From IMG/VR virus record IMGVR_UViG_3300035501_000471: a stretch of DNA of 64,000 bases; one strand, given 5' to 3'. Origin of the DNA: a virus (taxonomy: Duplodnaviria; Caudoviricetes). Below the pieces are notes generated by a model. It saw only the letters and a list, made by a program, of their open reading frames with translations. It was not told the origin of the DNA and searched no databases. The translations under genes were made by a program, and so were the position numbers. The first letter of the stretch is position 1, and each line of letters opens with the position of its first letter. Of the stretch, positions 13,130 through 57,766 are shown piece by piece.

Positions 13130-14854
13130 TTATTTCTTTATATATTCTGAAAATGTCATCACTCGAAATGATTCACTCACATTATTATCTAAAATTTCTG
13201 GAATATTCTTCTGTCCATTTTTATTTGCTGAGTGAACAAAATACTTAGGGATAGGTAAATCATTTTCTTTACAATATTTAACCAACCACTTAGCACAGTC
13301 TTCACCATCTGGGTAGTCATTACCTTTTTCAATTCCATTACCTTTCTTCAAATCTCTATCAAATGAAATAAATTCAGGTAGTCCATTAGTTTCAATATAA
13401 TCTCTGAACTCATCTAAATTTTTAACCCATTTGAATTTTATATTTTTATATTTAGTATGGAGGTCATCATAGAATTTTTTGTTTCGTTGATATGCTCCAC
13501 TTTTACTTTCTTTACTCAAATATACTTCTGGGTTTCTTTCATCATCGAGCCATAGAATTTTCAAAGAATCATCATCGGTTAAGTCAGTTGTTTCCTTGTC
13601 TATTTTATCTATAGTTTTTTCAACAGTTGTAACTTCTACCTTTTCCGGTTCTGGATTTTTTAGTTCTTCTTTCTTATTTACTTTTTTTGGTTTCAGTTCA
13701 TCTTTAAGTGATTCGTGATGACCATAAACAGTTTTGGGAATAACCGCTAATGTAATAGGAAGAATTGATTTTACTCCATATTTTTGAAGTTCCAAGCAAA
13801 TGTCATCAAGGGTAGCTCCTGAAGAAATATTATCATCAAAAATTACAACATTCTTACCTTTGAGTTTTTGTTGGATACCATTTAAGTTAGGATTTATTTC
13901 AAACAAACCCTCAATAGAACGTCTTTTACTATCTTCCAATGACTTTATTTCAAAATTCTTAGCACGACCATCAGAACCTATTGTTTTATCTTTACCTCTA
14001 CGACCTTTTCTCAAAATCTTAGCTTGGTCTTGAAGATTTGCTAATAGTTCCTCTTTTTGTTTGAACTCTCTTGTAGGTCTTCCTTGTTTTCGATTAGCCT
14101 TTGTGTATAGAATTTCATCTTTCAAGTCATCAATCTTCAATCGTAGTTCGTACAAATCAGCATCTTTTTTCCAATGTTCAATATCTTGTTGTAGTTGGTA
14201 AATGTCCTTATCAGTCAATCCAACTTCATGAGCTTGTTCATAATTGATATATACCTTACGAATGTTTTTCGTCATTAGGTCAGGGATACATTTAATACCC
14301 GGTGAATCTTTATAACCTCTTAATATATATCCAACCATTTCTTTATTAAATGCTGATGAACTTTGAGGATATGTAATAATGTCAATAGGATTTTTCTTCA
14401 ATAGTTGACGAATATATAATGATGTACGTTTCATAAATTTGTCAATACTATCAAAATCAATATTACGATTTTCAAGTTCAGAATATTTGGTGGGGTGTTT
14501 TAGGGCCTTGGAAGCTCTCATGTCAGACAGTCTATAAAGATTGTATGATGTGACTCCACTTTTCTTTAATGGTACTTCAACAAAATCTAACTTTTTGGTT
14601 TCTGGATTAAAAATTCTGGTTGATGTTGAATCTGTATCATTTTTACCGGGCACGAACTTAAATGTTCTATCACCAGATTTTGAACCATGTGAAAAACCTT
14701 CTTCAAGTTCATCATCAACACACAACTCATCATAACCCATTTCATGTTCAGCATCCATTAACATTTGGATAAAATCAATGGTAGATATTCGATTATCTTC
14801 AAATTTCATATCTTTATCTTGACCTAATTGGAAATCTTCAAAAGATTTAATCAT
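13130..14854 (-). CDS. Phosphoribosyltransferase-domain protein fused to a cyclic-phosphate-processing receiver-like domain
   Basis: PRPP-binding loop VVIFDDNISSGATL; C-terminal ILWLDDER...ISFDRDL...DGEDCAKWL...VHSAN. Confidence 0.7.
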   Translation of the reverse strand: MIKSFEDFQLGQDKDMKFEDNRISTIDFIQMLMDAEHEMGYDELCVDDELEEGFSHGSKSGDRTFKFVPGKNDTDSTSTRIFNPETKKLDFVEVPLKKSGVTSYNLYRLSDMRASKALKHPTKYSELENRNIDFDSIDKFMKRTSLYIRQLLKKNPIDIITYPQSSSAFNKEMVGYILRGYKDSPGIKCIPDLMTKNIRKVYINYEQAHEVGLTDKDIYQLQQDIEHWKKDADLYELRLKIDDLKDEILYTKANRKQGRPTREFKQKEELLANLQDQAKILRKGRRGKDKTIGSDGRAKNFEIKSLEDSKRRSIEGLFEINPNLNGIQQKLKGKNVVIFDDNISSGATLDDICLELQKYGVKSILPITLAVIPKTVYGHHESLKDELKPKKVNKKEELKNPEPEKVEVTTVEKTIDKIDKETTDLTDDDSLKILWLDDERNPEVYLSKESKSGAYQRNKKFYDDLHTKYKNIKFKWVKNLDEFRDYIETNGLPEFISFDRDLKKGNGIEKGNDYPDGEDCAKWLVKYCKENDLPIPKYFVHSANKNGQKNIPEILDNNVSESFRVMTFSEYIKK

Positions 14855-14897
14855 TTTATAAAGTTGATTATTTAGTTTATAGTTTATTTATGTTGTT

Positions 14898-18488: not shown

Positions 18489-18640
18489 AACTTAAAAATA
18501 ACAAAAGGCTGATGAAAACCTCACCAACCTTTAATACATTATATAAATTTAACTATATCAAATTCCAAAAATTATCATCAACAAATTTTTGAAACTCACT
18601 ATCTAATGGTTTCATATCTTTTAATATTGTTGAGATGAAA

Positions 18641-19528
18641 TCAGACAAAATCCTCTGGTCTGACTCCATACATTTCATAGTAATCTGCAACTCCACATTC
18701 GAGGTCATCTTCACTATATGTAGTTTTTATATCTTTGAAATCAAGTCCAATTTCTTCATCGGTAACTTCACCATACATTTCAAGGTCATCATTATCACAA
18801 TATATAGTTAATTTACTAAATCGAATTTCACCATCACACCAATATTCACCATAACTTCTACGTGAACCAGAAGTCCACACATCATATTCTGAATTTATAA
18901 GACAATTACCTACTGATAATTCTATTTCATCTTCAAATTCAGTCGTTTCATCCATATCCTCACGATATTCAAAATCAAAATTTAGATGATTTTCAATAAT
19001 ATTATAAAGTTCTTGAATATCATCTTCTGTCAATGTCTTTTTCATCCACTCTACAAAACGACGATGTTCAATAACATCTCTTTTTTCTTGATGTTTTTTA
19101 TGGATATCATCATAGTTATGGATTTCCTTATTAGATTTTCCTCTATATCTATCCATATGGTGGTCTTTATCTTGACCGATATGACGTTTATTCCTTTTTT
19201 GTATCAGTTTTTTTACTTCTTCACCATTATCTTTCCACCAAACAGAGAAGATTTCCATATTACCTATAACAACACGATAACCATCTTGTAAGTCTATACA
19301 AAATGTTGCAGGATTTTTGTCATCACCATTATCATACTTTTCACAATACTCATGGAAATCTTTAACAACATCTATAATATCATCATCATGAATATCATAC
19401 AAAAGAGGTTTATCCCACTCATATTTTGGTAAACCATGTTGTTTTATAATGGCTCTCAATTTTCCACTTTGAAAACCTTCATTTAGTGAATTTAGTTTTA
19501 AAAAATCAGAAAAACTTAAAACGTTCAT
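18641..19528 (-). CDS. Hypothetical protein, probable internal head protein
   Basis: Late promoter at 19550-19557; MNVLSFSDFL...LNE|G leader. Confidence 0.6.
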   Translation of the reverse strand: MNVLSFSDFLKLNSLNEGFQSGKLRAIIKQHGLPKYEWDKPLLYDIHDDDIIDVVKDFHEYCEKYDNGDDKNPATFCIDLQDGYRVVIGNMEIFSVWWKDNGEEVKKLIQKRNKRHIGQDKDHHMDRYRGKSNKEIHNYDDIHKKHQEKRDVIEHRRFVEWMKKTLTEDDIQELYNIIENHLNFDFEYREDMDETTEFEDEIELSVGNCLINSEYDVWTSGSRRSYGEYWCDGEIRFSKLTIYCDNDDLEMYGEVTDEEIGLDFKDIKTTYSEDDLECGVADYYEMYGVRPEDFV

Positions 19529-20780: not shown

Positions 20781-22766
20781 TTAAACCTCCCCTGATATAT
20801 CATCTTTTTCTAATTCTGAAATTTCTGTTGTTACGACTTGTTTTATACCAGCAATATCTTTTAGGTATCCAATCTCAGGTCCCAATATTCTTTCAGCGAA
20901 GTCACCCCAACTCTTATCATAATATACTAAACAAAGTATATCTTTCAAATATCTTGAACAATTCTGTTTTAGATATTTTGGGTCTTTGGGGTTACTATAA
21001 CTTGTTGCCCACAGACCATCACCAAATATAAAGATAGGACAGTCATGGTTTCTTCTTTTCAATTTAAGTATCTCTAATGACACCGCTTCAAAGTTTTCAA
21101 TTCCACCACCGAGTCCTTGATCAGATATAAATTTCCAGATGTCTTTTAATAGGTCTTCAAACTTAGCCTTGTTTCTAATATCTCTTTCTTTTACCTTATA
21201 TGGTTTAGATAATCTTTCACCAAATCCATATATATTTACTTCATTAAATGCTAACTTTCTACAAAAATCCAAAACTCTCTGTAAAAATGTAAATACTAAT
21301 GGTTGAGATACAGAACCAGAAAAGTCAATGAAACAATTTATCTGTTCAATCTCACCACCAGCAGGAGATGATTTAGGTAACACAGCATCTCTCCAAAGGT
21401 GTTTTTTATCACCCCATGTAGTTTTCTTATACTTAGATGAACTTGTTCCTGACCTCTTTGATTTAGAACGTAAGAAGATTTTAACCATTTCTTTCCATTC
21501 CATATTAGTTATCTTACCTTTCAGAACACCACGAAGAATACCTTTTGCCAATGATGAACCAGACTTTCCAGACTCAGCGGCTTTCTTTTCAAGTTCTTCC
21601 GCAGCCTCCTTAGCAATAGTTTCATCATCCTCCATTTCATCTGATGTGTCTGTGTTTTTGTCCTTTTTCATTTTTTCAATGTCTTTTGGATCAAACCCAC
21701 CTTTTTTCATATCATCGGTAAATAGGTCATCATCAGGAGCATCTTCCAATGTTTCACCAGCTAACTCACCAGAACCAGATTTAGTTTCATCTGTTGCTTT
21801 GTCAATATCTTCTTTCAAATCACTGGCTTTTTCTTCTGAGGATTTACCATCTTCACTGTCACCAAAAGAATCCTTCATTTTATCAAGTAATTCTTTTTCT
21901 GATGATGAACTTGTCCCCTCTTTAGTTCTATCAAGTGCATCCTTTATCTCACTTTCCAATGAATCATAATCTTCTGAATCATAATCTATTGTGTCATCAT
22001 AGTCAACATCATCATCAGAACCATCACCAGAATCCCCACTTGATGAACTTCCACTTGTTCCTCCATGTGAACTTGATGAACCACCTGAAGATTTACTACT
22101 ACTTCCACCTGAACCTTCACCTTCGGAATCACCATCATCAAAGTCACCATCTTCATCTGAACCACCTGAAGAACTATCATCACCAGAATCATCTCCAAAG
22201 TCCCAGTCATCATCATCTCCAAGGTCATCATCATCTCCAAAATCACCATCTTCATACTCATCTTCATCATCACCACTGGGAGAAGAACCACCAAAATCAT
22301 CACCTTCTTCATCACCAGTTTCACCATGACGAGAATCAGAATCATAATCGAAATCATCAAATTCAAAATCCGGTTCATGTTTGTCAGATTCATCATCTTC
22401 ATCATCCTCAGATTTTGGATCCTCTAATTTTTCAATGTCATCCATATCATCCATAGTTGATGACTTAAATAATGAACCATCACCATCACCTCCAGCACCA
22501 CCATCGTCATAAGGTTTATCTGTCACACTGTCAGTATCATCACCACCGGGTTTTTCACCACCTGTATCATCACCACTTCCTTCTTTCTTTCCTTCGATAT
22601 TTCTAACTCGATTAAGTACATCTAAAACGGCTTGTGTTATACCCTGTTCTGATGTTTTATATTCATCATCAATTTCCACACCAACTTCATCACCATCTTC
22701 TAATGATTCAGTGATTACATTAGTGTTTTTAATTAATTTATCTAATTTCTCAAAAATACTTTCCAT
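20781..22766 (-). CDS. Acidic low-complexity region plus vWA-like (DUF2201 C-terminal type) domain
   Basis: Long D/G/S-rich tract; MIDAS-like FIDFSGSVS; GGG; IFIFGDG. Confidence 0.72.
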   Translation of the reverse strand: MESIFEKLDKLIKNTNVITESLEDGDEVGVEIDDEYKTSEQGITQAVLDVLNRVRNIEGKKEGSGDDTGGEKPGGDDTDSVTDKPYDDGGAGGDGDGSLFKSSTMDDMDDIEKLEDPKSEDDEDDESDKHEPDFEFDDFDYDSDSRHGETGDEEGDDFGGSSPSGDDEDEYEDGDFGDDDDLGDDDDWDFGDDSGDDSSSGGSDEDGDFDDGDSEGEGSGGSSSKSSGGSSSSHGGTSGSSSSGDSGDGSDDDVDYDDTIDYDSEDYDSLESEIKDALDRTKEGTSSSSEKELLDKMKDSFGDSEDGKSSEEKASDLKEDIDKATDETKSGSGELAGETLEDAPDDDLFTDDMKKGGFDPKDIEKMKKDKNTDTSDEMEDDETIAKEAAEELEKKAAESGKSGSSLAKGILRGVLKGKITNMEWKEMVKIFLRSKSKRSGTSSSKYKKTTWGDKKHLWRDAVLPKSSPAGGEIEQINCFIDFSGSVSQPLVFTFLQRVLDFCRKLAFNEVNIYGFGERLSKPYKVKERDIRNKAKFEDLLKDIWKFISDQGLGGGIENFEAVSLEILKLKRRNHDCPIFIFGDGLWATSYSNPKDPKYLKQNCSRYLKDILCLVYYDKSWGDFAERILGPEIGYLKDIAGIKQVVTTEISELEKDDISGEV

Positions 22767-22768
22767 GA

Positions 22769-24679
22769 TTAATCTTCCTCTGATGTTTTTGTTACTTTAG
22801 GAGCGAGTTTTTCAGCTTCATCAAACAAAGCGTCAGCACCTTTTTCTTTATATATATCAATAAGTTTCTTTCTGGTTTCTTTATAAGCCTTCTTCCATTC
22901 CTCTGATGCTTTAATTTTCTTTTGGGTTTTCAATTTTTTACCCAATCTTCTCAAACCATCAACCGCTAATGACATGGCACCAAATTTAGCACCCGGTGTT
23001 TCATCTTCATCACCAATAATGTCAAAGAAATGACTTACATCTTTGAAAACATCATCTAAGAATGTAGGAATTTCTCTTTTCTCCCATTTTAATATTTTGT
23101 CATCTATTAACTTGTCAAAATCTTCAGTAAGGTCTTTTTTCAATGTTGGTATATATGAAACAACTTCTTCTACATCTTCATGTACCAAATCTGTAACTTT
23201 CTTTTCAGTCAATTCAGTCATAGCTTGTCTCATTGAATATAAAGTATCACAAGTATCTGAACTAATTCTACCAATATCATATAGTCTTTCAAGATTAATA
23301 AAGGTATCCACAAATTTTTGAATTGGGTTTTTCTTTTTTAATTTATCCTTTATGGTTTCTGCCTTTTCTCTATCTCTTTCTTCTTTAGTTTTACCTGTTT
23401 TCCTAGTTTTTTCGGCTTCTCTTTCTGCCTTTTCTTTTTCCCTTCTAACCTTATCTTTATGTTCTTCAATCGCTCTTTTACGACGTTCACTTTTTCTCTT
23501 TTTATCAAGGTCATTTAATATTATAGCTTCCAAATCATCCTTAGCTTGTCTAATGATTTTTCTTTCTTCTCGTATCTCTTTATCACCTTCATATAAAGTA
23601 TTGAGAGCTTCTGTTAATGATTTCATCGCAGTTTTTACATCATTAACCACATCTTCTTCATCCTTTCTAAAGGCTTCACCTATTTTAGATGCATTCTTTA
23701 ACAGATTTTTTCTCAACATTTTAATATCAGAAATAGTCACTGAAATTTCATGGTCATCCATTTCTTTAGGGTTGGTTCGTAAGTCATCTACTACATTTTG
23801 TATATCAGATTCTAAATCACCAATTTCACCCAACATTGAATCCATTAATTTTTCCAACTCTCGTCTTAAACCAGCAAGGTCAGCCTTATCAACTATTTTA
23901 CGGTCTTTTTTACCATATAGTTCATCCATAGCTTTCTTTAACTTTTCACCAGCGATTTCTTTTTCCGCAGATGTTGAATCTTTATCATTCAAAACAGTCA
24001 AGGCTTCTTCTATTGCTTTAAGGGCGGCCTTGGTCTTATCATCGAGTTTTATACCATTCAGTTTCATCCATTTTTCATACTCCATGTCACCATATTTGTC
24101 ATAGATGTCTTCCCATGTCATTCCTGTGTATGCTGGATTATAACAACCATTCATCTTTTTCCAGAAATCTTTAGAAACAATACCATCATCAACCATAGAG
24201 GCGTTTACTTCAAAGTCAGTGGCCAGATTACATTTCATATGAATTTCTTTAGTTGCTCCTGTTCCAAATCTCTTTATACCCTTTTCAACATGCTTAAAGA
24301 AATTGTGCATTAACTCATGAAATAAAATACCAAACACCCGTTCTTTTTTCATTTTACAAGTATTATACACAAAATGAGCGTTTATCCATAAGTTTTTCTT
24401 TTGGTCAACCGCCATTGTATTAATACCCATCGAACTGGGATAATTTGGTATAAAAAAGATTTTACTGTATTTAATATATGAGTAAAAGAAACGATATTCA
24501 GAAGAAATCTTAAACATCGCATCAGTTACCACTTTTACTATATCTTTAGTTTCAACTGGAATTATAGCCTTTAATGTCATATCATAAATGTCAATCGTTC
24601 CAAGTTCCAAAAAAAGGTCTTCATTACCCTCAACAGCAGAACTGGATTCATTAAGACGATTGTAGTATATAAGATTCAT
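22769..24679 (-). CDS. Metallopeptidase (DUF2201 N-terminal type) with a long helical C-terminus
   Basis: TMAVD...LWIN, FHELMH (HExxH), NLATDFEVN. Confidence 0.75.
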   Translation of the reverse strand: MNLIYYNRLNESSSAVEGNEDLFLELGTIDIYDMTLKAIIPVETKDIVKVVTDAMFKISSEYRFFYSYIKYSKIFFIPNYPSSMGINTMAVDQKKNLWINAHFVYNTCKMKKERVFGILFHELMHNFFKHVEKGIKRFGTGATKEIHMKCNLATDFEVNASMVDDGIVSKDFWKKMNGCYNPAYTGMTWEDIYDKYGDMEYEKWMKLNGIKLDDKTKAALKAIEEALTVLNDKDSTSAEKEIAGEKLKKAMDELYGKKDRKIVDKADLAGLRRELEKLMDSMLGEIGDLESDIQNVVDDLRTNPKEMDDHEISVTISDIKMLRKNLLKNASKIGEAFRKDEEDVVNDVKTAMKSLTEALNTLYEGDKEIREERKIIRQAKDDLEAIILNDLDKKRKSERRKRAIEEHKDKVRREKEKAEREAEKTRKTGKTKEERDREKAETIKDKLKKKNPIQKFVDTFINLERLYDIGRISSDTCDTLYSMRQAMTELTEKKVTDLVHEDVEEVVSYIPTLKKDLTEDFDKLIDDKILKWEKREIPTFLDDVFKDVSHFFDIIGDEDETPGAKFGAMSLAVDGLRRLGKKLKTQKKIKASEEWKKAYKETRKKLIDIYKEKGADALFDEAEKLAPKVTKTSEED

Positions 24680-38028: not shown

Positions 38029-38146
38029 ATCTTCTAAATTTCTTTTAAGTATTTATGGAAAATTGTTCTAACACATGATTTACCAGACATACATATATAT
38101 TGAAAATAAAAAAGTCATAAATACTAAAAATAGATTACCTATTAAA

Positions 38147-38466: not shown

Positions 38467-39093
38467 TTAGCCTTTATTTTTTAGTTGCCCCATTATTTGA
38501 CAACCTATGAAATTTCCGATTATTGACCAGAACCAAATAAAAAATTGTGTCTTTTGAAAACCAACTGACAAACCATAAACTAAATGGTAAGCAATGTCAG
38601 CGATACAGTGAGGAAAACCACATATTATAAAGACAGGAACACAATAGAACATCGGTAAGTAAGATAATGGATTTTTGAAGTCATCTTGTGAACGGTTTGG
38701 TCTATCAACGGCATGACTCATCAACATTCCACAACCAATCGAACCCATTAAAATACCCATGTAAGATGTACTAAGTCTGGTTGAAATTATCTTAACTGCG
38801 GTAGCTGACAAAACAGGTATTTTGACCGCTCCTGTAAAATAAATCAAGGAAACAAAACAGACAATACCCAATAGATTACCTAAAATCATATAAATGTATT
38901 TGCTCCAATTTTTCCATTTTGTTTCATATCCAACCTTTCCAGTGAATAAATTAAATCTGTTATTCACTACAATAAATAGTCCGATAGTAAATAAAACCGC
39001 TCCCAAAATACCGGGGTTCAACATATATACTACTGTTCCAATTCCAATAGCAATTCCCGCATAAATTGACTTAACAAAATCTGTCCAAATCAT
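38467..39093 (-). CDS. Formate/nitrite transporter (FNT) family channel
   Basis: LFTG, GNLLG, GCGMLM and GFPHCIAD motifs; about six transmembrane helices. Confidence 0.82.
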   Translation of the reverse strand: MIWTDFVKSIYAGIAIGIGTVVYMLNPGILGAVLFTIGLFIVVNNRFNLFTGKVGYETKWKNWSKYIYMILGNLLGIVCFVSLIYFTGAVKIPVLSATAVKIISTRLSTSYMGILMGSIGCGMLMSHAVDRPNRSQDDFKNPLSYLPMFYCVPVFIICGFPHCIADIAYHLVYGLSVGFQKTQFFIWFWSIIGNFIGCQIMGQLKNKG

Positions 39094-47754: not shown

Positions 47755-49248
47755 ATGGGACATATATTAAACAGAGCAGATTTCTTAAAAGAATCATTGT
47801 GGAAAGGTGTGATTGACCGTTCTAAATCTGGTGAAGTGAGAAAAGAAGATATACTCGGTAATCATAGTTTCACAGATGGTAATGGAACATTTCACAAACA
47901 TGGTATAAAACCTGATGAATACCAACCTTATGACGCGATTACTAAGGTTGTATGGTGGCATTTGGACAGAAAATCAATAAAAGATGTAATAGACCTAAAT
48001 GTAATAGACACCAGTGAATTAACAAGTATGGTTGAGGTATTTTCATTAGCTTTCACACGATTAATGTGGCCAAAAGACTATGATAAAGAAGGTTATAGAG
48101 CTTTGACTGCGGAAGAAGTAGATGAACTCAAATTTGATTGTTCAGGTTGGCAATTAGATAACATGAGGAATATAACTTTCAAAGGTCTATTCAAGGATAT
48201 AAATATTGATAATTGGACAATACCTGAAGGATTAAAAATAAAATTTGGTGATTTCAAGGACAGTTATTATGAAAACAATCCACCCAGTTGGTACAATTTC
48301 GATATAAAAGAATGGGTAGCCAGTGCTGTTTATGGTAGAGGAGCAGTAAGTCACAACAAATATGGTGTTGATAAAGTTAGAACCAAAGAATTAGGAAAGA
48401 AATGTTACTGGGTTAAATTTACAGAATCGTTCAGATGTAGAAATATTCCTGAGTGTGTATCTATTATTGATATCACAAATGAAAATAATCGACACGATAG
48501 AGTGTTTGCTGATTTAAGTGGTATTGAAACACTTAGAGGTTTACCTGAATCTGTAAAAAAAGAGAGTAAGGTATGTATTGAACTCTGTCTAAATGACCTT
48601 ACAGATAAAGAACTTATACTACCGGAAGGTATTGACCAACTTTCTATTAAAGAATCTGATAATGTTGATTTATTACCTACCGTTCTACCATACTCAATTT
48701 CTTTAGTTAACTCTAAACAACTTGGTCATGTTACTGAAGTTAATGGTTGGTTTAATTGTGGAAATTCAGGTATAACATCTTTGAAGGGTTGTCCTAAAAA
48801 AGTAACTGGTCATTTTGATTGTCATAACTCAAAATTGACTGATTTAGTAGGTGCTCCTGAATATGTTGGTAGTGACTTTAGTTGTTCAAACATGGGTTCT
48901 ATCAAATCACTAAAAGGTTGTCCTAAATATGTTGGTGGTGACTTTAATTTCTATTCAACAGGAGTAACAGATATAGATGATTTTCCTGAAGAAATAGGAG
49001 GTGGTGTTTATCTATCCGGTTGTTGTCACCTAAATAGTTTTGTTGGAATACCAGAAGGTGTAATAAAAGGTAATTTAGACATCGGTTATTGTAATGTTAA
49101 ATCGTTAGAAGGACTACCTGCAAGTATTGGAGGTTATTACTTTATAAAAAATTTAACATTGAATGGTAAATCCGTATCAAAAAATGATTTCTTGGAAATG
49201 TGTCCACACATCAACCCAGAAAAAGTAAAAAATTCAAAATATGATTAA
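47755..49248 (+). CDS. Leucine-rich-repeat family protein, copy 1
   Basis: LKESLWKGVIDRSK N-terminus; SLKGCPK.VGGDF repeats. Confidence 0.75.
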   Translation: MGHILNRADFLKESLWKGVIDRSKSGEVRKEDILGNHSFTDGNGTFHKHGIKPDEYQPYDAITKVVWWHLDRKSIKDVIDLNVIDTSELTSMVEVFSLAFTRLMWPKDYDKEGYRALTAEEVDELKFDCSGWQLDNMRNITFKGLFKDINIDNWTIPEGLKIKFGDFKDSYYENNPPSWYNFDIKEWVASAVYGRGAVSHNKYGVDKVRTKELGKKCYWVKFTESFRCRNIPECVSIIDITNENNRHDRVFADLSGIETLRGLPESVKKESKVCIELCLNDLTDKELILPEGIDQLSIKESDNVDLLPTVLPYSISLVNSKQLGHVTEVNGWFNCGNSGITSLKGCPKKVTGHFDCHNSKLTDLVGAPEYVGSDFSCSNMGSIKSLKGCPKYVGGDFNFYSTGVTDIDDFPEEIGGGVYLSGCCHLNSFVGIPEGVIKGNLDIGYCNVKSLEGLPASIGGYYFIKNLTLNGKSVSKNDFLEMCPHINPEKVKNSKYD

Positions 49249-49252
49249 ATAA

Positions 49253-49286
49253 AAAAGGAGAGGAATAAAAAATTTCCTCTCCTTTT
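49253..49286. terminator. Bidirectional terminator
   Basis: AAAAGGAGAGGAA / TTCCTCTCCTTTT between convergent genes. Confidence 0.75.
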
Positions 49287-49327
49287 AGTTTATAAAACAT
49301 TAGTCACAAATATGTTTCTTCTTTCAA

Positions 49328-50188
49328 TTATGCGAAACGAACAGGGGTAAGAACCACATAGGTCTTCACATTGTCATCATCAAAGCTAACAAACTTGATT
49401 TTGTTAGAATGGAATTCAATGTTGTAGAACTTGTCACTGTCAATCCATTCAAAATATTGTTTGTTGAAACATCCAAGGTAGTTTTCCACACCTTCACTGG
49501 CGGTAAACTCATTGTGGATAAGTTTCTTGTCATACAACTTGTCGAATTTTTGGAAACCAACAAAGTCATTGTCTTGAATAAGGTCATTAACCGTACTACG
49601 AACATTTTCGTCGGTTGATTCAATCTCGCTGACAACAATACTGTCACCATTTACAAGATTGAAGAATACACGAACCGAATCTTTATTCAAACCGAACAAA
49701 CCACGAAGTTTCTTGAACTCGGTGTCTGTGATACTAACTGAACATTGAAGTTTAGATGTATCTTCAAAGATTGAGAATCGTGCGGTTTCAGGAATTTCAA
49801 GGAAGTCAACAGCTTCTTTATCAGCACAGTTAACAGTTACATTCATTTCTGAGTTCTTAACTGTCAACTTCTTAGCATAGTTGTTGTCCTCAATATCAAA
49901 CACCATGTCAACAGTATCTTCACCTACAAGAGTGAGGGTAGTGATAAGTTTAGTCGCATTTGAGAACTGAATCTTAACAGGTTCATCAAATGGATTAGTA
50001 AATTCATCACACATGGTTTCGATGTCAGCAGATACTGATTTAAGAGCTGACTTGTTACGGTTATACGCGGTTGATTCAAACTTACTACCATTTAGGGTAA
50101 CAAAAATGAGGTTATCCATAGAGGCACTTCGCTTAATCAAAGAGGCGAATTGTTTGGTTTTTACACCTTTCAATGAGATTTTTTTCAT
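49328..50188 (-). CDS. Probable DNA polymerase sliding clamp (gp45/PCNA-like)
   Basis: 286 aa with an apparent two-domain alpha/beta pattern ending in a hydrophobic strand; carries the replication-class promoter. No diagnostic motif, so this is an inference. Confidence 0.55.
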   Translation of the reverse strand: MKKISLKGVKTKQFASLIKRSASMDNLIFVTLNGSKFESTAYNRNKSALKSVSADIETMCDEFTNPFDEPVKIQFSNATKLITTLTLVGEDTVDMVFDIEDNNYAKKLTVKNSEMNVTVNCADKEAVDFLEIPETARFSIFEDTSKLQCSVSITDTEFKKLRGLFGLNKDSVRVFFNLVNGDSIVVSEIESTDENVRSTVNDLIQDNDFVGFQKFDKLYDKKLIHNEFTASEGVENYLGCFNKQYFEWIDSDKFYNIEFHSNKIKFVSFDDDNVKTYVVLTPVRFA

Positions 50189-50312
50189 TATAAAACTATT
50201 AAAAATTTAAATTATCAATTACATTATAAAAATAACAAACTTGTGAAATTTTTGACTAACTTTCATCTTCAATTTCAACTACATCATAAATATAACAAAG
50301 AATGTTTTTTTT

Positions 50313-51815
50313 TTGATGAGACAAATTTTAAGACGTGATGAATTTCTAAAAGAGGCTCTGTGGAAAGGTGTCATTGACCGTTCTAAAAGTGACAAAGCAA
50401 GAGAGGAAGATGAGAACCACCACCATTTCACTGATGGTAATGGAAAAATTCATAAACATGGTATTCTTGTAGAAGATAATATTGAACAAACTGTTCCTGA
50501 TGTTATTGGTAAATACATTTTAGACCAACTTGAAAAGGGTAATTATGACATTGACCTTAATATTCTTGATATGAGTGAAGTAAAATCTATCCAAGATTTA
50601 TTCCACAACATTAAAGTATATCTATTATATAAGAGTATTCCATTAGCAGACATTAACAAAATTAAGTTGGATTGTTCTGGATGGTTATTAGATACTGTCC
50701 AACATCTTAGATATGCTTTCAATGGATTGTGGACTGACATTGGTATTGAAAATTGGAAATTCGCCACTGAAAAACAAATGGACTATACTACATTCAAAAA
50801 TAGTTGGTATGAAGATAATTTACCCAGTTGGTATGAATTTAATCCAAAAGACTGGGCATCTACTTGTATAGACCATATAAGTAAATTCAGTTCCAGACTT
50901 GATAAAGTAAGAACCAAGGAATTAGGTAAGACCTGTTATCTCGTTAAATTTAAGGTAGGATTAAATGATAATTTGACCATTGAACATATTCCTGATGTTG
51001 TTACTATCGAAAGTATAATTGGAGAATATACAAATCGTGTTATAAATTGTCAAAATCTAAAATCATTTGAGAGATTCCCCAAAGAATTTGATCCTTATTA
51101 CAAGTTTATGTTAGAATTAACCCTTAAAAAATTTGATGAAGAAATTGTACTACCCAAGGGATTACATAAAATATTAATTAAGGACAAAAATGATGACATT
51201 ACGAGATTACCAAAAGTATTAGATTGTGGTATTCATATATATCATTCAAATGTCCTTGTTCCACATTTTGAAGAAGTAAAAGGTGATTTTAAGGTCAATT
51301 TTTATGGTTCAGGTTCAACATCATTAGATGGGTTTCCTAAAGTTGTAGGTGGTGAAGTTGAATTATCAAATTACAATGGTTCATCACTAAAAGATTGTCC
51401 GGAAAGTGTTGGTGGAGATTTTATTATAAGGAATTGTCCAAACATAGATAGCTTACAATATTGTCCAAAGTTTATAGGGAAAAGATTTGACATAACAAAT
51501 ACTCCTAAACTCAATAAATTTGATTTCTTCCCAGATGTGATAAAAGGAGATATATCATTTGAAGACTTAAAACTTGATGACTTTGAAGGTTTACCTGACA
51601 CACTAAATAATAAAATATATATGTTACGTATAGTGTGTAATAAATCATTCAAGGGTTTACCAACTAAAACTACACAAGAAATTGAAGTTGATAATTTCCA
51701 ATTAAATAATACATTTATACAACCAGAGGATCTTATTCCAAAATTGATAGAGGATAATCCGAATGTTAACCCAGACCTATTTACTCATAAAATTAAAGCA
51801 TATAATAACAAATGA
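50313..51815 (+). CDS. Leucine-rich-repeat family protein, copy 2
   Basis: LKEALWKGVIDRSK; SLDGFPKVVGG and SLKDCPESVGGDF repeats. Confidence 0.75.
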   Translation: MMRQILRRDEFLKEALWKGVIDRSKSDKAREEDENHHHFTDGNGKIHKHGILVEDNIEQTVPDVIGKYILDQLEKGNYDIDLNILDMSEVKSIQDLFHNIKVYLLYKSIPLADINKIKLDCSGWLLDTVQHLRYAFNGLWTDIGIENWKFATEKQMDYTTFKNSWYEDNLPSWYEFNPKDWASTCIDHISKFSSRLDKVRTKELGKTCYLVKFKVGLNDNLTIEHIPDVVTIESIIGEYTNRVINCQNLKSFERFPKEFDPYYKFMLELTLKKFDEEIVLPKGLHKILIKDKNDDITRLPKVLDCGIHIYHSNVLVPHFEEVKGDFKVNFYGSGSTSLDGFPKVVGGEVELSNYNGSSLKDCPESVGGDFIIRNCPNIDSLQYCPKFIGKRFDITNTPKLNKFDFFPDVIKGDISFEDLKLDDFEGLPDTLNNKIYMLRIVCNKSFKGLPTKTTQEIEVDNFQLNNTFIQPEDLIPKLIEDNPNVNPDLFTHKIKAYNNK

Positions 51816-53311
51816 AACACATATTAGACAGAAAGTCTTACTTAAAAGAAGCTTTGTGGAAGGGAGTAATTGACCGTTCTAAGACTGATGAAGACAGAAC
51901 GGAAGATGCACTTGGTCATCATCAATTTACTGATGCTAATGGTAAATTTCATAGGAATGGTATTTTAGTAGATAGTAATGATGTTGTTGGTGACATTGTA
52001 AAAGTGATTAAAAGATATGCGGGTAAACAAGATGTAATTGATTTAAATATTCTTGATTTTAGTGAAGTAAGACGAGTAAATGAAAGATTATTTAAGGATA
52101 TATATGATGCATTAAAATTTGATGATGAATTTATGTCACTGGGTATTAAACCTGATGAATTGGGTTTGGATACTTCTGGTTGGGATTTGACATCATTATA
52201 TAATTTAGGTCATATCTTAACAAACGTAACACATGATATTGGTGCTGATGGTTGGAAAGTAAATGAAGAATGTGCATCTCAATGTACTGCTTTCAAATTC
52301 AGTTACTATGACTATCACAATCCTAAATGGTATAAGTTTGATATAAAACAATGGGTTCAATCATGTTGTAATTCCACACAGTTACACACCGCAGACGCGA
52401 GATTCCAAGAGTATGGGATTGATGAAGCAAGAACAAAACAAGAGGGAAAAGATTGTTATTATGTAATTTTTAACACTGATTGTACTATTAATTTCATACC
52501 TGACAATGTAACAATAAGAACAATCACAAGTAAAAAGACAAAACGTGATGAAAAGAATATATATGTTGATGTTGATATATCCGGATTAAAGACTCTCAAG
52601 AATTTTGCACAGTCATTTGATCCAAAAGAAAGAGTTATTCTACATATTGATTTGAATAATTTTGAAGATAATGAATTTATAGTTCCTGATGGTACAAATA
52701 TAATAAAGGTTCCAAAAGAATCACCAATCGACAAACTACCAAAAGAATTAAATTGTTCATTCTCAATATCAACACCTAAACATCTCAATCATTTCACAAA
52801 AATAGATGGTGATTTGTTTTTCAGAAGTAAATACATGAACTCTCTACAAGGTTGTCCGGATGTTGTTACTGGTAAATTTTATGTTTGGAGTGCTCCCTTA
52901 AAAGATTTCAATGGTTGTCCAAAAGAAATTGGTGGAGATTTTATTATTAGTAGTGTTGATAAATTACAATCTTTCAATGGTTGTCCTGCAAAAGTGGGAG
53001 GTAATATTGACTTATATGATGTAAAAATACCTTCATTTGATGGTTTACCGGAATGTAACTCTATCATTTTATATAATAGTTCATTCACAGATTTCACAGG
53101 TTTCCCTGAAAAAGTAAACGGTGACTTGGTTATTAAAGATTGTTATATAGATACAATAAATGGATTCCCAAAAGAAATTGGTGGTAAATTGAAAATCAGT
53201 CACGACACCAAATTAGATGGTAAAAATATGACACTTAAAGGAATACTTGGAAAAGTTAAATTATCATCTATGAATGTTACATATAAAGACCATTATACGA
53301 TTTTAGGATGA
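51812..53311 (+). CDS. Leucine-rich-repeat family protein, copy 3
   Basis: Same architecture as copy 2; ATGA overlap with the preceding gene. Confidence 0.75.
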   Translation: MKHILDRKSYLKEALWKGVIDRSKTDEDRTEDALGHHQFTDANGKFHRNGILVDSNDVVGDIVKVIKRYAGKQDVIDLNILDFSEVRRVNERLFKDIYDALKFDDEFMSLGIKPDELGLDTSGWDLTSLYNLGHILTNVTHDIGADGWKVNEECASQCTAFKFSYYDYHNPKWYKFDIKQWVQSCCNSTQLHTADARFQEYGIDEARTKQEGKDCYYVIFNTDCTINFIPDNVTIRTITSKKTKRDEKNIYVDVDISGLKTLKNFAQSFDPKERVILHIDLNNFEDNEFIVPDGTNIIKVPKESPIDKLPKELNCSFSISTPKHLNHFTKIDGDLFFRSKYMNSLQGCPDVVTGKFYVWSAPLKDFNGCPKEIGGDFIISSVDKLQSFNGCPAKVGGNIDLYDVKIPSFDGLPECNSIILYNSSFTDFTGFPEKVNGDLVIKDCYIDTINGFPKEIGGKLKISHDTKLDGKNMTLKGILGKVKLSSMNVTYKDHYTILG

Positions 53312-54804
53312 AAAATCATATATTAAATAGAGAATCTTACTTAAAGGAAGCATTGTGGAAAGGTGTAATTGACCGTTCCAAGACTGGTAAGGCTCGAGAA
53401 GAAGATGTACCCGGTCATCATCATTTCACAGATGGTAATGGGGTGAAACATAAACATGGTGTAAAACCTGATTATGAGGTCGATCCAAGATTTTTAATTG
53501 AACTCATAAAAGAAGCTATCATTAAACAAAAGGATAAGAATGATGTAATCGACCTTAATTATATTGATATGTCAGAAACCTCAACTATTTCTGATTTGTT
53601 TCCCAATGTATTTGATGATTTAGAAGATGAAATAGAAAAGGATGAGTTATATAATCTTAAATTTGACACATCAGGTTGGATAATGACAAATCTCCAAAGA
53701 CTAAACCATGCATTTCAAGGTTTAACTTCAGATATTGGTATAAACAACTGGAAGATTAATAAAGATAAACTTGATATAAACTGGAAGGTAGTTGAAGGTA
53801 GTTATTATGAATCCCATCTTCCTGAATGGTATGAGTTTGATCCTGTTGATTGGATTAGAAGTCTAAATATCATGTACCCATCAAAGGATTCTATTGTGGA
53901 AGATGAAGAAAGAACAAAACAGTTGGGAAAAAAATGTTACATAGTTTCTTTACACAACTCATGTACAATAAATTTCATTCCTGAACAAATTACCATTGAT
54001 TCTATTGATGGTGTTAACGATTCAGGAAGTATCCCAAATACAAAAATACATATTACAAAGTTAACATCATTAGATAGATTTCCAGAGTCTTTTGATGCTG
54101 ACCAAAATGTAATACTATATACTAATTTAAACAATATTAAAGATAATCCACTAATTATACCAAAAGGGATTAAGAAATTATGTATAACCAGTAAAGATGA
54201 TGTGACACGATTACCAAAACATATTGATTATGGTATTGAAATAAGAAGTAAATCACAACTTGGTCACTTCATAACAGTTAGAGGTAACATGGTTTTCTTT
54301 TCATTAGGTCATTCCAAATATGATGTAGACTCATTTAAGGGTTCACCTAAAAAAGTTGGAGGTTCTTTTTTATGTAACAATAATCAATTCATAAAGACAT
54401 TAGAAGGTTGTCCGGAAGAAGTTGTAAAAGATTTTTCAGTAGGTCGTTCATCATCTCTGGTTTCTCTAAAGGGTTGTCCTAAATATGTAGGTGGTAATTT
54501 TGGTATCAGTTCAAATAAATTATTAAAACAAATTGATGATTTTCCTGAATATGTTGGTGGACATATCGACATATCTTACAATGATTTAGATAGTCTTGAG
54601 GGATTACCTGAAGAAGTAAAAGGTGACATTATTTTAATAGGAACTAATGTTAGATCATTTAAGGGATTACCAAAAAAGATAGGTGGTTGTATCAAAATAA
54701 GTAATTCAACAACATTGGATGGTAAAAAAGTTGATAAAAATGATATAATTAAAGAAAACCCAGACTTAAAACCATCAGATATAAAAGTATTTGAAGTTAA
54801 CTAA
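53308..54804 (+). CDS. Leucine-rich-repeat family protein, copy 4
   Basis: Same architecture; ATGA overlap. Confidence 0.75.
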   Translation: MKNHILNRESYLKEALWKGVIDRSKTGKAREEDVPGHHHFTDGNGVKHKHGVKPDYEVDPRFLIELIKEAIIKQKDKNDVIDLNYIDMSETSTISDLFPNVFDDLEDEIEKDELYNLKFDTSGWIMTNLQRLNHAFQGLTSDIGINNWKINKDKLDINWKVVEGSYYESHLPEWYEFDPVDWIRSLNIMYPSKDSIVEDEERTKQLGKKCYIVSLHNSCTINFIPEQITIDSIDGVNDSGSIPNTKIHITKLTSLDRFPESFDADQNVILYTNLNNIKDNPLIIPKGIKKLCITSKDDVTRLPKHIDYGIEIRSKSQLGHFITVRGNMVFFSLGHSKYDVDSFKGSPKKVGGSFLCNNNQFIKTLEGCPEEVVKDFSVGRSSSLVSLKGCPKYVGGNFGISSNKLLKQIDDFPEYVGGHIDISYNDLDSLEGLPEEVKGDIILIGTNVRSFKGLPKKIGGCIKISNSTTLDGKKVDKNDIIKENPDLKPSDIKVFEVN

Positions 54805-56327
54805 TGAAAACGATATTAGATAGAAAATCATTCCTAAAAGAAGCATTGTGGAAAGGTGTAATTGACCGTTCCAAAAACAACATGGATAGAAAAGAAGATA
54901 TTTTAGGTCAACATAAATTTACAGATAGAAATGGTGTCACTCATGAACATGGTATCTTAGCACACCCTGAAAATGACTTGTGTGAAACAGTAGCTAAGGT
55001 TATTTACTATTATGTGAAAAAAGGTGAGAATGTGGTTGACCTAAACTTAATTGACATGAGTGAAATAACATCAATAGACTGGTTATTCAAAAACACTATT
55101 GAAGAATTGGAAGAAACTTATAATATGTTAAAACGTGACATCTTCAAATTAAAAATGGATGCTTCCGGTTGGGATATGTCATCTTTAACTGATGTTGATT
55201 ATGGATTTTGTGGATTGTGGACTAAGATAGGTGCTGAAAAATGGAATGTTTCTGAAGATTGTAATGTTAAGTTACATGATTTTATGACATCACCTTATAT
55301 GTCAGAACCTCCTACTTGGTGTAAATTTAGAATGTCGGACTGGATTGCTATGACCACAGAATACTCTTCAGATGCAGAGTGGGGTGAAGATGATGAAAGA
55401 AGTGAGAAATTAGGTAAACCTTGTTATTGGGTTATACTTCAAAATCACTTCGACCTTCAATATTTACCTGATTTCATTACAATTAGAGAGATTAATGGTA
55501 AAAAATGTACAGGTGATTTAATTGGAGATGTTACTGAACTTAAATCCATCAGAAGATTACCTAAAGTTTTTAAAGATGACCACAGAGTTATATTAAGGAT
55601 TTGTCTTAAAAATATTGAAGATGAATATGTAGATTTGCCTGCTAATATACATGAACTAATACCTGATTTCAGAGATAATGATATAGACATTAAGAAATTA
55701 CCAAGAAAACTCGATTGTGGTATTACATTCAAAGACGAAAGTCAAATTTGTGGTTATATTCAAGAGGTTGTTGGTAATGTTGATGTAATTGATTTACCTT
55801 TAAGTAGTTTACATAAATTACCTGATATTATACATGGCCGACTTTTATTGAAAGATATTACATCATTACACAACCTTAGAGGATTTCCTGTTAAAGTAAA
55901 TAATCTGATAATAAATAATGTAACAAACTTAGATTCTTTTGATGGTTGTTGTCGTGAATTAAGTGGTGATTTAAGATTGAAAAAATTACCTAATATAATT
56001 AATTTATTAGACCTACCCAAGAAAGTAAAAGGTGATGTTGAAATTGATGATTTATTTATACATGAATTATACGACTTCCCTGAAACCGAAGGAAATGTAA
56101 TCTTAAATAAATTGAAGGGTATAGATAGTTTTGAAGGATTTCCTGAACATTTATATCAAGACCTACATATTCAACAATGTAATATTAAATCTATCAAGGG
56201 ATTTCCCAAACAAGTTGACGGAAGAATACACTTCTATGACACAAAACTAAATGGAAAACCCATTACGATTGATGATATTTTAGAAGTTAGTCCTGAATTA
56301 AACAAAGCAAATATTGACATACAATGA
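54804..56327 (+). CDS. Leucine-rich-repeat family protein, copy 5
   Basis: Same architecture; TAATG overlap. Confidence 0.75.
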   Translation: MKTILDRKSFLKEALWKGVIDRSKNNMDRKEDILGQHKFTDRNGVTHEHGILAHPENDLCETVAKVIYYYVKKGENVVDLNLIDMSEITSIDWLFKNTIEELEETYNMLKRDIFKLKMDASGWDMSSLTDVDYGFCGLWTKIGAEKWNVSEDCNVKLHDFMTSPYMSEPPTWCKFRMSDWIAMTTEYSSDAEWGEDDERSEKLGKPCYWVILQNHFDLQYLPDFITIREINGKKCTGDLIGDVTELKSIRRLPKVFKDDHRVILRICLKNIEDEYVDLPANIHELIPDFRDNDIDIKKLPRKLDCGITFKDESQICGYIQEVVGNVDVIDLPLSSLHKLPDIIHGRLLLKDITSLHNLRGFPVKVNNLIINNVTNLDSFDGCCRELSGDLRLKKLPNIINLLDLPKKVKGDVEIDDLFIHELYDFPETEGNVILNKLKGIDSFEGFPEHLYQDLHIQQCNIKSIKGFPKQVDGRIHFYDTKLNGKPITIDDILEVSPELNKANIDIQ

Positions 56328-57766
56328 GAAAACCAATATTAGATAGACAATCATTCCTAAAAGAAGCATTGTGGAAAGGTGTAATTGACCGTTCCAAAAA
56401 TGACACTGTTAGAGAAGAAGATGCTATGGGACACCATAAATTTACTGACAATAATGGTGTTCATCACAATCATGGTGTATTGCCTGAGAATAGAAATGAA
56501 TTGGTAGAGTTTATTGTCCAAATCACACTTAAACATTTGGATGATGAAAAAATTGACTTAAATGACATAGATACAAGTAAATTGAAAAGTATTGCTTATG
56601 TCTTCCAAAAGGTATTTTCTGATTTGAATTATGCACATAGTATCAGAAAACCTAAATTGGATTCTCTCATCTTTGATACATCTGGTTGGGATATTTCAAA
56701 TGTTGGTGCCTTAGAATTTGTTTTTTATGATGTAAACCATGACATAGGTGCTGATAATTGGAAAGTTAGTCCTGATATGTCAATGGAGTATAATGATTTC
56801 AAATTCAGTCCATACTATCAAGACCATCTACCTAAATGGTATAAATTTGATATTGAAGACTGGGCAACATCAAACACCAAATCAAGAAAAGCTGTTGAAT
56901 GGGGTGATGATGATGAACGAACAAAAGAATTGGGTTATCAGTGTTATTGGGTTAAATATTATGACCATTGTAGTTTTTATGATATTCCAGACAATGTGAG
57001 AATTTTAGATATTAATGGTTCAAAATTCGATACACCATCACCTACTGTTGACATTGAAAATCTTAAAACACTTAAAAACTTTCCAAAGTCATTCAACCCG
57101 AAATCAAACATACTCTTAAAAATTAACCTTGATAAATTTGATGATGACCATTTTGATGTACCTAAAGGAATAAAGTACCTACATCCAAAAGAAACAAATG
57201 ATATTAAAAAACTTCCTACCGTTATAGATTGTGGTATCATGTTATCACCTAAACAACTTGGTCATATCGTTGAAGTAAAAGGTGATGTTCAACTTAGAAG
57301 TGGAGTAACAACTTTATCTGGAATACCTAAAAAAATTGGTGGTGATTTAACAATTCACAATGGTCTAATTACTGACCTTACTGGTTGTCCATCTAAAATT
57401 GGTGGTACATTAGAATTATATGGATGCGAACAACTTAAAACCCTAAAGGGAGCACCTAATGAAGTTGGAGGTAGTGTCATGATTAAAGTAACAAAACCAA
57501 TAAATTTTGAATACCTACCCCAAAAAATAGGTGGAGATGAAATAATTATAACTTCATATAGTGGTGAAAACTTTATGGGACTACCTGAAGAAATTGGAAC
57601 ACTGTCATTAAAATGGTGTAGTATTAACTCTCTCGAAGGACTACCAAAACACATAGACAATCTTACACTAGAACAAGTAAGATTAAACGGTGAAGAAGTT
57701 AGGACAAAAGATGTGTTAGTAGTGTCACCTGAAATTGATAAAAGAAGTATTGATATAAGAAATTAA
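56324..57766 (+). CDS. Leucine-rich-repeat family protein, copy 6
   Basis: Same architecture; ATGA overlap. Confidence 0.75.
   Translation: MRKPILDRQSFLKEALWKGVIDRSKNDTVREEDAMGHHKFTDNNGVHHNHGVLPENRNELVEFIVQITLKHLDDEKIDLNDIDTSKLKSIAYVFQKVFSDLNYAHSIRKPKLDSLIFDTSGWDISNVGALEFVFYDVNHDIGADNWKVSPDMSMEYNDFKFSPYYQDHLPKWYKFDIEDWATSNTKSRKAVEWGDDDERTKELGYQCYWVKYYDHCSFYDIPDNVRILDINGSKFDTPSPTVDIENLKTLKNFPKSFNPKSNILLKINLDKFDDDHFDVPKGIKYLHPKETNDIKKLPTVIDCGIMLSPKQLGHIVEVKGDVQLRSGVTTLSGIPKKIGGDLTIHNGLITDLTGCPSKIGGTLELYGCEQLKTLKGAPNEVGGSVMIKVTKPINFEYLPQKIGGDEIIITSYSGENFMGLPEEIGTLSLKWCSINSLEGLPKHIDNLTLEQVRLNGEEVRTKDVLVVSPEIDKRSIDIRN

Follow-up and report, generated by a model that had tools for sequence, protein, structure and literature searches.

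In bacteriophage T4, a capsid-targeting sequence is used by all of the internal head proteins (PMC5694885; PMC3012670; the leader is quoted also in PMC8442874). In the T4 record NC_000866, IPII and IPIII begin with MKTYQEFIAE/A (here and below, a slash stands behind the Glu of a cleavage site or candidate cleavage site), and IPI begins with MKTFKEF, followed by an 11-residue spacer and then ITE/A; the Alt protein is cut at ITE-6 and LTE-619 (PMC5694885). Here we describe a comparable arrangement in a window of 64 kb (the whole stretch analyzed, from IMG/VR record IMGVR_UViG_3300035501_000471; ~31% G+C, densely coded, standard code), which its sequence assigns to an uncultured giant phage of the gut or rumen with a T4-type head module. 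Four unrelated proteins encoded behind promoters with the octamer CATAAATA begin with a leader whose core is aromatic-x-acidic-aromatic, and these and further proteins carry aliphatic-x-Glu sites followed by Ser, Gly or Ala. We judge it reasonably probable, from these patterns, that T4-style capsid targeting and protease trimming have here been extended to large enzymes and polyproteins.

The likeness to T4 has several parts. The head families are the same, with an S77 protease, a portal of gp20 type and a gp23-type capsid protein that has a propeptide at its N terminus. The leader lies at the extreme N terminus of otherwise unrelated proteins, and aliphatic-x-Glu forms its end or follows it. 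The direct leader form of IPII and IPIII is matched in related genomes (G1 and G2, described below) by MIKKFEEFINE/S (G2), MAYIKKFSEFIKE/S and MKNILDFDNYILE/S, and the spaced form of IPI is matched in the window at Glu17, Glu20 and Glu24. Moreover, the T4 pattern M-K-T-[YF]-x-E-F is resembled by K-T-Y-D-E-F, F-K-D-F and F-E-E-F-I-N-E in this clade, though for so short a motif homology is unprovable. There are also differences. The T4 cargo consists of three small basic proteins and Alt, whereas that of the clade would comprise multidomain enzymes of 300-900 aa and polyproteins. Unlike T4, the clade has many more tagged genes, internal copies of the leader and a preference for Asn at P2, and it adds after many sites a second conserved element, S-V-W...R-K-E-D. 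Thus, what is new relative to T4 appears, by analogy, to be a larger and more modular cargo under a known capsid-targeting logic.

Two further described systems bear comparison. In phiKZ, 201phi2-1 and SPN3US, head-internal proteins, including enzymes, enter the prohead and are cut after Glu by an S80 protease; in phiKZ-like phages some propeptides are multi-site, and there are paralogue families with common N termini (PMC5694885). The phiKZ-like cleavage motif is Ser/Ala/Gly-x-Glu, in contrast to the aliphatic-x-Glu of the clade, and these phages have no T4-like leader and other cargo families. Polyvalent proteins, as cited in PMC7824862, are large multidomain effectors delivered with phage or plasmid DNA. 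Similarly, one late 1027-aa protein of G1 chains a GNAT domain and six further modules, but the modules of the clade, unlike those of polyvalent proteins, are set apart by a repeated junction compatible with the head protease, and many genes encode a single module.

The four leaders of the window are found on a phosphoribosyltransferase (PRTase)-like/cREC protein, a protein without an assigned family, an AAA+-like ATPase and RimK1, a RimK-type ATP-grasp protein (Table 1). A first-pass annotation of this DNA had quoted these leaders in proposing that late-expressed enzymes are packaged, cleaved and injected. All of them are present, as are all of the N-terminal sites it quoted (LEE/G, LNE/G, LNE/S, ILE/S, LTE/S, ITE/S and LKE/A, the last being LKE/S in some leucine-rich repeat [LRR]-like paralogues) and the internal sites, at Glu303 and Glu415 of MoxR, Glu484 of RimK2 and Glu561 of the PRTase-like protein, with internal copies at fusion junctions. 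The motif F[SE][DE][FY] occurs six times in the 20,103 residues encoded by the window, and four of the six copies are at protein residues 5-8, where 0.04 are expected (Poisson P ~1e-7, for a motif defined post hoc). All-against-all BLASTP comparison revealed no similarity among the four proteins beyond the leader. Their genes differ in codons at synonymous positions and in the upstream DNA beyond the octamer; the leader is therefore conserved at the protein level. An origin of the leader at the RNA level or as a copied cassette was rejected on these grounds and because the motif recurs internally.

The sites are enriched as well. Nine window families have [LIV]xE[SGA] with the Glu at residues 8-30, compared with 3.7 expected (P ~0.01). 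Under our own operon assignment, such sites are present in 8 of 26 late-operon families versus 1 of 24 other families (P = 0.024).

Independent genomes were obtained for comparison. The window gave no match to GenBank phages by megablast, and the best GenBank relatives of its protease are uncultured huge phages (34-36% identity), with Lak phages next. Searching IMG/VR with the AAA+ protein as a single sequence found no close relatives; the alignment of its homologues, used as the query, led to eight IMG/VR loci, and two contigs from these, fetched whole, served as the independent test genomes G1 (411,604 bp) and G2 (344,746 bp), each ~94% complete. Their proteases are 67-68% identical to that of the window, and both genomes are syntenic with it. 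In addition, a near-identical IMG/VR fragment, L001, reaches beyond the window into the capsid gene. In G2, the leader motif is found at residues 4-6 in seven proteins versus 1.6 expected (P = 0.001) and, in G1, in five versus 1.6 (P = 0.02); its tie to late promoters is significant in G2 (P = 4e-4) and not in G1 (P = 0.16). For the site form [LIV][NT]E[SGA] between residues 6 and 40, all three genomes show both enrichment and an association with late promoters, with 18 copies versus 6 expected in G2 (P = 5e-5), 19 versus 9 in G1, and a promoter link in these two relatives at P = 5e-4 and P = 0.003. The tagged genes of the relatives run to dozens per genome, and leader carriers in G1, G2 and further homologue sets include Zn_protease, WYL_2, MATCAP-like, AAA+ and PRTase-like proteins.

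These results bear on whether the motifs are artefacts of chance, of composition in A/T-rich start regions or of a copied promoter-plus-start cassette. Indeed, MIKK-type starts are common in genomes of such low G+C content, and the motifs were defined post hoc. However, the enrichment was measured against the interiors of the same proteins and was reproduced in two other genomes, and the motif persists at protein identities as low as 32% and occurs also internally, at a conserved fusion junction. We therefore regard an artefactual origin as highly improbable.

Conservation within single families shows the same elements at closer range. In the AAA+ family, whose members are 32-99% identical, 31 of 32 sequences have the leader, and these 31 all have hydrophobic-x-Glu at residues 17-26. 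The spaced leader form of this family is MIKKFKDF. In an alignment of 16 sequences, M1, F5, F8 and E20 are the sole invariant residues before position 73, the linkers between leader and Glu vary among the homologues, and E147, in the internal loop, is invariant too. The AlphaFold model of the protein has pLDDT values below 50 at aa 1-35 and in the loop at 143-158; according to this model and that of an LRR-like protein, leaders and internal sites are in low-confidence, unpacked segments. The protein without an assigned family has a G2 orthologue (32% identity) that retains F-x-D-Y...VLNE/S immediately ahead of the conserved core; searches of Pfam, PHROGs and a protein atlas provided no family, fold or function for it. 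The PRTase-like protein matches Pfam cREC_REC (E = 3e-17), with Pribosyltran under the cut-off. Its family has the leader, commonly K-T-Y-D-E-F, in 118 of 120 homologues by regular expression, with one more in which the leader is further in, and E/G[WF][ST]xG is kept in all 120. The C-terminal 13 residues of the window protein (13130-13168) follow the last of its sites, in the sequence VSE/S-F-R-V-M-T-F-S-E-Y-I-K-K, such that a second leader-like core, F-S-E-Y, stands immediately after the Glu; T4 Alt is likewise trimmed at its C terminus.

The head module of the window provides a candidate protease and a precedent for its sites. The 639-aa protein scores 37.7 bits on Pfam Peptidase_S77 (PF03420; cut-off 27), is labeled head maturation protease by PHROG and aligns with T4 gp21 in pairwise BLASTP (E = 4e-9), where GELDHP pairs with GELNHP and SSR with SSR. 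By the model and these His and Ser motifs it belongs, on sequence grounds, to the S77 family, though it scores on the S80 model too (31.7 bits); a phmmer search of PDB sequences with the full protein found no match. Its C-terminal half (987-2000), as read from the translation, contains ~10 tandem units of ~11 residues, ..[DN]Y[LIV]xE.., every one of which is itself an aliphatic-x-Glu site, and this region resembles a fused scaffold domain. The gp23-type capsid gene lies just outside the window and was seen in L001, and its family was confirmed via the G1 orthologue (Pfam Gp23, E = 8e-36; T4 gp23 in PDB, E = 9e-7); Peptidase_S77, Portal_T4 and Gp23 all exceed the Pfam cut-offs. The capsid propeptide contains, in order, ILNE/S, ITE/S and LNE/S, the last directly ahead of the stretch alignable with the beginning of mature T4 gp23. 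By analogy with T4, this propeptide would be cut at its LNE/S- and ITE/S-type sites, and the sites on the putative cargo are therefore ones that the phage protease must already cut. The small late protein of the head module (6248-6529) has IDE/G at Glu38, where relatives have LNE/S, and [LIVM]xE[SGA] is present in 89 of 90 distinct homologue N termini; its orthologues begin with MIQKYDEYF (G1) and MNMVQKYNDFF (G2).

The capsid propeptide also resembles other N termini of the window. Its first 24 residues (L001 13656-13730) align with those of the LRR-like proteins (53308-53380) as M-K-N-x-I-L-N...L-K...W-x-G-x-I, with shuffle P values of 0.0005-0.0045, as against 0.02-0.9, without alignment, for the G1 forms of the module described below. 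Because the G1 forms do not align, derivation of that module from the capsid propeptide was set aside and kept as a lead.

T4 late promoters contain the octamer TATAAATA, which differs by one base from the window octamer. Of the latter, the window has 22 copies, 18 of which are 12-68 nt upstream of the start of an open reading frame. Genes preceded by it include those of the protease (37 nt upstream), the tail sheath, the tail tube, the small head-module protein and all four leader proteins, and it is from the genes sharing the octamer that we call this class late. The MoxR gene has the variant CGTAAATA. A late promoter alone does not entail a leader: it stands before a TnpB gene and several homing-endonuclease genes that lack one.

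The six LRR-like paralogues each open with a junction module of ~33 residues, which in the window takes the form I-L-x-R-x-x-[FY]-L-K-E/[AS]-L-W-K-G-V-I-D-R-S-K...R-x-E-D. The LKE/A site that the first-pass annotation attributed to this family is thus present, but it is not isolated: the module of which it forms the first part extends beyond the putative cut. Residues 4-50 of the six paralogues are almost invariant, compared with an overall identity of ~36%, and a wider alignment shows no substitution at E13. The AlphaFold model gives low confidence to aa 1-30, starts its fold near aa 35 and has at the C terminus an LRR-like solenoid, for which Foldseek returned weak matches, to LRR proteins only; Pfam and PHROGs gave no function for the junction-module proteins. 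The LRR-type N terminus was found on 18 proteins in a profile-free search of 1.8 billion representatives; in many of these the leader is joined directly to the module, as in MIKKFEDYITE/GMW, and one contains five internal copies. In the relatives, the module reads x-E/S-[VI]-W-x-D-[IM]-x-[KR]-R-[SG]-N-G...[RK]-K-E-D. Copies are N-terminal in 14 cases in G1 and 11 in G2 and internal in 15 and 12, respectively, with six internal copies in the late 1027-aa G1 protein (235853-238936), which starts with the GNAT domain. Of the 27 internal copies, 23 have Val, Leu, Ile or Met at P3 (P = 1e-9) and 13 have Asn at P2, with varied residues at P4-P9. Conservation therefore begins where a gp21-type protease would read, a pattern that supports cleavage at the module boundaries.

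The N-terminal modules might instead be docking or recognition elements that are not protease substrates, serving as a tail or baseplate anchor of LRR-like receptor-binding proteins or as a tag for a co-encoded modifying enzyme such as the RimK-type ligases. The junction module is most strongly conserved after the putative cut, in a basic stretch, which makes a structural or docking role without cleavage possible; arrays of paralogues with a constant N terminus and a diversified LRR-like C terminus are typical of receptor-binding proteins, and each of the three genomes has RimK-type genes amid the tagged ones. However, the only conserved features upstream of the Glu are an aliphatic residue at P3 and frequent Asn at P2, together the frame that the protease would read and the pattern of the capsid propeptide. 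Furthermore, the leader closely matches the T4 capsid-targeting sequence, and the copies inside long proteins are located at module boundaries, unlike a terminal anchor. RimK-type ligases are known to act on C-terminal Glu and not on N-terminal leaders. On balance, we consider a docking or recognition role without cleavage unlikely.

The portability of leader and sites is evident in the MoxR, peptidase and VWA genes and the RimK genes. Orthologues of the metallopeptidase-like, MoxR, von Willebrand factor A (VWA)-like and RimK2 proteins keep the N-terminal sites, with variable flanks. For example, LNE/[SAD] is kept with variable flanks in three homologues of the metallopeptidase-like protein, which itself matches DUF2201_N weakly (E = 0.008, under the cut-off), and orthologues of the VWA-like protein have INE/A and VNE/S at the same position. 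The VWA-like gene is in an operon with the metallopeptidase-like gene upstream, and its VWA assignment rests on the PHROG profile that the two share, consecutive halves of which they match. In MoxR, a complete leader-plus-site element stands at the junction of the DUF285 and AAA+ domains, where the relatives have DYDSFINE/G (G2) and DFDTFVNE/G (G1), and a MoxR-only paralogue in G1 begins at this very point. Likewise, aa 378-515 of RimK1 match stand-alone Zn_protease-domain proteins of G1 and G2 that have leaders of their own, MLKKFEEY and MLKKFDEY. The domain is thus fused behind RimK in the window and free, with its own leader, in the relatives, from which we conclude that the leader is portable. 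The sites of RimK2 are kept in the G1 and G2 orthologues, though this evidence is weaker because the entire N terminus of the family is conserved. G1 (168634-169791) and G2 (8800-9957) also encode a late leader-tagged protein with a MATCAP-type (tyrosine carboxypeptidase family) domain, and the MATCAP-type, RimK and RimB-type genes together suggest, by family resemblance, a theme of enzymes that edit protein C termini.

A different fate may be considered for these proteins, namely that some or all of the tagged proteins are prohead assembly helpers or core components that the protease degrades or expels, like T4 gp22, gp67 and gp68, and that are not delivered. The subset in question would consist of the MoxR ATPase, the metallopeptidase-like and VWA proteins, the AAA+ ATPase and the small Gly-zipper protein. 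A pair of MoxR and a vWA-metallopeptidase fusion protein, described in T4-like (group 2.2) jumbo phages, has been proposed to act as a virion-assembly chaperone (PMC7824862). Similarly, the MoxR AAA+ gene of the window adjoins peptidase-like and VWA-like genes close to structural genes, and these three genes adjoin tail and head genes in the window, G1 and G2. Several sites per protein would fit a scaffold-type fragmentation, and the protease has its own repeat-rich, scaffold-like tail. Unlike the jumbo-phage module, the window has peptidase and VWA as separate genes and MoxR behind DUF285, and its MoxR, peptidase and VWA proteins have N-terminal aliphatic-x-Glu sites that are absent from the homologues in phage 121Q. 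The 121Q MoxR homologue has no leader and no propeptide, so that the leader is a clade-specific addition. In addition, the RimK/RimB-type, PRTase-cREC, GNAT, MATCAP-like, WYL_2 and LRR-like proteins look effector-like and have no obvious role in assembly. We thus think it improbable that tagged proteins, or this subset of them, serve assembly and are not delivered.

For T4-style targeting and trimming of an enlarged cargo, we infer scaffold docking, cleavage, retention in the head, ejection and a function in the host as follows. Late genes behind CATAAATA would encode the short aromatic-x-acidic-aromatic leader, often directly followed by [ILV]-x-Glu, and this leader would act as a capsid-targeting sequence that docks the protein on the scaffolding core of the prohead. 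After closure of the shell, the S77 protease would cut behind the Glu in aliphatic-x-Glu/Ser, Gly or Ala, and these cuts would remove the leaders, open exposed interdomain loops and separate fused modules. The matured proteins would remain in the head with the DNA and probably be ejected into the next host. Such a cargo would include the PRTase-like/cREC protein, the RimK-type ligases with the RimB-type protease domain, the AAA+ and MoxR ATPases and the LRR-like proteins. The first-pass figure of about 14 packaged proteins is reasonable, with four bearing the leader, five bearing only conserved N-terminal sites and six bearing the junction module, tiers that differ in strength. Its interpretation also holds insofar as T4-type leaders and gp21-type sites are present on late proteins of nonstructural appearance, and less well for MoxR, the metallopeptidase and VWA, which are possibly prohead-resident helpers.

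A bolder form of this proposal, which we put forward tentatively, is a portable two-part address label composed of the leader and a junction of ~20 residues and carried both by single genes and by long polyproteins, which would be cut in the capsid into dozens of modules, with a conserved basic stretch that has its own role and with ribosome- or protein-modifying enzymes that act in the host ahead of all phage gene expression. The junction might then be aliphatic-x-E/S-V-W-x-D-I-x-K-R-S-N-G...R-K-E-D. The modules could, on the same tentative footing, be the GNAT, RimK/RimB-type and MATCAP-like modifiers of protein tails, PRTase-cREC, AAA+/MoxR and LRR-like binders. It is conceivable, too, that the conserved basic stretch comes to lie at the new N termini, for instance for DNA binding in the head or ordered ejection.

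In addition to the conservation of the junction module beyond the cut, several observations weigh against targeting and trimming. The P3 residue of the PRTase-like E/G site is Cys in 93 of 120 homologues (Leu in 17, Ile in 9), which is a weaker fit, the window protein has no matching site ahead of Glu52, and the region from leader to site is itself conserved in this family, which may mark a structural element rather than a propeptide. Leader and site are both absent from a membrane protein encoded by an operon partner (38467-39093) and from several late-promoter genes. Conversely, two non-late genes are partial counterexamples, one (43956-44783) with FIEE/S at Glu20 and the other (61815-62375) with the N terminus MQDWYDEY. 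By analogy with the published system, the MoxR/peptidase/VWA trio may have an assembly-chaperone role instead of being injected. In cultured phages with virion proteomes, homologues were found only for the cREC domain and, distantly, for MoxR (24% identity). Finally, the leader and site motifs are short and were defined post hoc from inspection of the sequence.

If targeting and trimming of this kind take place, capsid targeting of the T4 type would be an ancient, portable address label by which giant phages of gut and rumen load large enzymes as well as cleavable polyproteins, and not a peculiarity of T-even phages and their three small internal proteins. A leader plus aliphatic-x-Glu behind a late promoter would then provide a sequence rule for the injected proteome of uncultured T4-type phages, and the host activities of the first minute would include RimK/RimB-type modification of protein tails, cREC-type repair of RNA ends and AAA+ remodeling. 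The clade would also be a source of new natural leaders with which engineered phages could package proteins, and arrays of unannotated paralogues with a common first 30 residues would be accounted for.

Table 1. Window features discussed in the text (nt, nucleotide positions; aa, residues; a slash marks the putative cut)
Feature	Position	Strand	Details
PRTase-like/cREC protein	13130..14854	-	Leader MIKSFEDF, aa 1-8 (nt 14831-14854); LEE/G, Glu52 (nt 14696-14707); VSE/S, Glu561 (nt 13169-13180)
Protein without assigned family	18641..19528	-	Leader MNVLSFSDFL, aa 1-9 (nt 19502-19528); LNE/G, Glu17 (nt 19475-19486)
AAA+-like ATPase	27511..29391	-	Leader MLKKFSDF, aa 1-8 (nt 29368-29391); ILE/S, Glu20 (nt 29329-29340); loop VNE/S..LNE/A, aa 145-153 (nt 28933-28959)
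RimK1, RimK-type ATP-grasp with PF05618-like (RimB-type) protease domain	39090..40664	-	Pfam RimK, E = 2e-26; leader MIQSFEEY, aa 1-8 (nt 40641-40664); LTE/S, Glu24 (nt 40590-40601); LSE/G, Glu367, at domain junction (nt 39561-39572)
RimK2, second RimK-type ATP-grasp	40746..42515	+	Pfam RimK, E = 8e-30; LNE/S, Glu13 (nt 40776-40787); VEE/G..LTE/G, aa 477-485, internal site Glu484 (nt 42174-42200)
Acidic low-complexity protein, VWA-like C terminus	20781..22766	-	ITE/S, Glu20 (nt 22704-22715)
Metallopeptidase-like protein	22769..24679	-	CATAAATA promoter; LNE/S, Glu11 (nt 24644-24655)
DUF285 fused to MoxR AAA+	24768..27473	-	Pfam DUF285 and AAA_5; LEE/G, Glu24; LNE/G, Glu57; internal leader plus site DFETFMLNE/G, aa 294-304, at domain junction (nt 26562-26594)
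Six LRR-like paralogues	47755..57766	+	Each opens with the ~33-residue junction module; LKE/[AS] codons at 47785-47796, 50346-50357, 51842-51853, 53341-53352, 54834-54845, 56357-56368
Prohead protease, S77/gp21 family, scaffold-like C-terminal half	987..2906	-	639 aa; by Pfam, PHROG, BLASTP
Portal protein, T4 type (gp20-type)	4241..5944	-	Pfam Portal_T4, E = 1e-70
Small late head-module protein	6248..6529	-	CATAAATA promoter; acidic N-terminal part, Gly-zipper C terminus
Tail sheath	7877-10951		
Tail tube	11038-11682		
TTTGTTAT[TG]TTTA	7825, 18504, 20768, 46178, 47080, 50238, 61761	-	
TTTGTTAT[TG]TTTA	61780	+	

A second promoter-like motif, TTTGTTAT[TG]TTTA, is located upstream of the polymerase, methyltransferase, clamp-like and other non-late genes, at distances of 16-61 nt and often directly after a G+C-rich hairpin, and probably represents an early or middle promoter class. 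The late octamer precedes a TnpB-type transposase gene and several homing-endonuclease-like genes (34170-35411, 31935-33098, 36769-38028 and 2-397). The 5' leader of the capsid gene is long, and one block of it is conserved in L001 (13556-13655), G1 (273107-273206) and G2 (114834-114933); this block may be a translational control element. CATAAATA is ~88 nt upstream of the capsid start in L001 and G1, and none is visible in the 100 nt examined in G2.

Two small reading frames of the window are related to larger genes. The mini-gene at 18138-18488 (116 aa) is 82% identical to the N terminus of the VWA-like protein and 55% identical to the C terminus of the metallopeptidase-like protein, and by sequence it is a rearranged duplicate of the junction between these two genes. 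The 128-aa frame at 38075-38461 (plus strand) shares 43% identity with the final module of the late 1027-aa G1 polyprotein and is probably a remnant or free-standing module of such a protein; within the window, it is the sole trace of the G1 type, with no intact polyprotein present. Two replication genes are split. The helicase pieces at 30746-31951 and 33145-33840 correspond to the two halves of a single 445-aa protein of G1 and G2, and the polymerase pieces at 57800-59275 and 60213-61700 match one protein of ~978 aa; in both cases, an endonuclease-like gene lies between the pieces.

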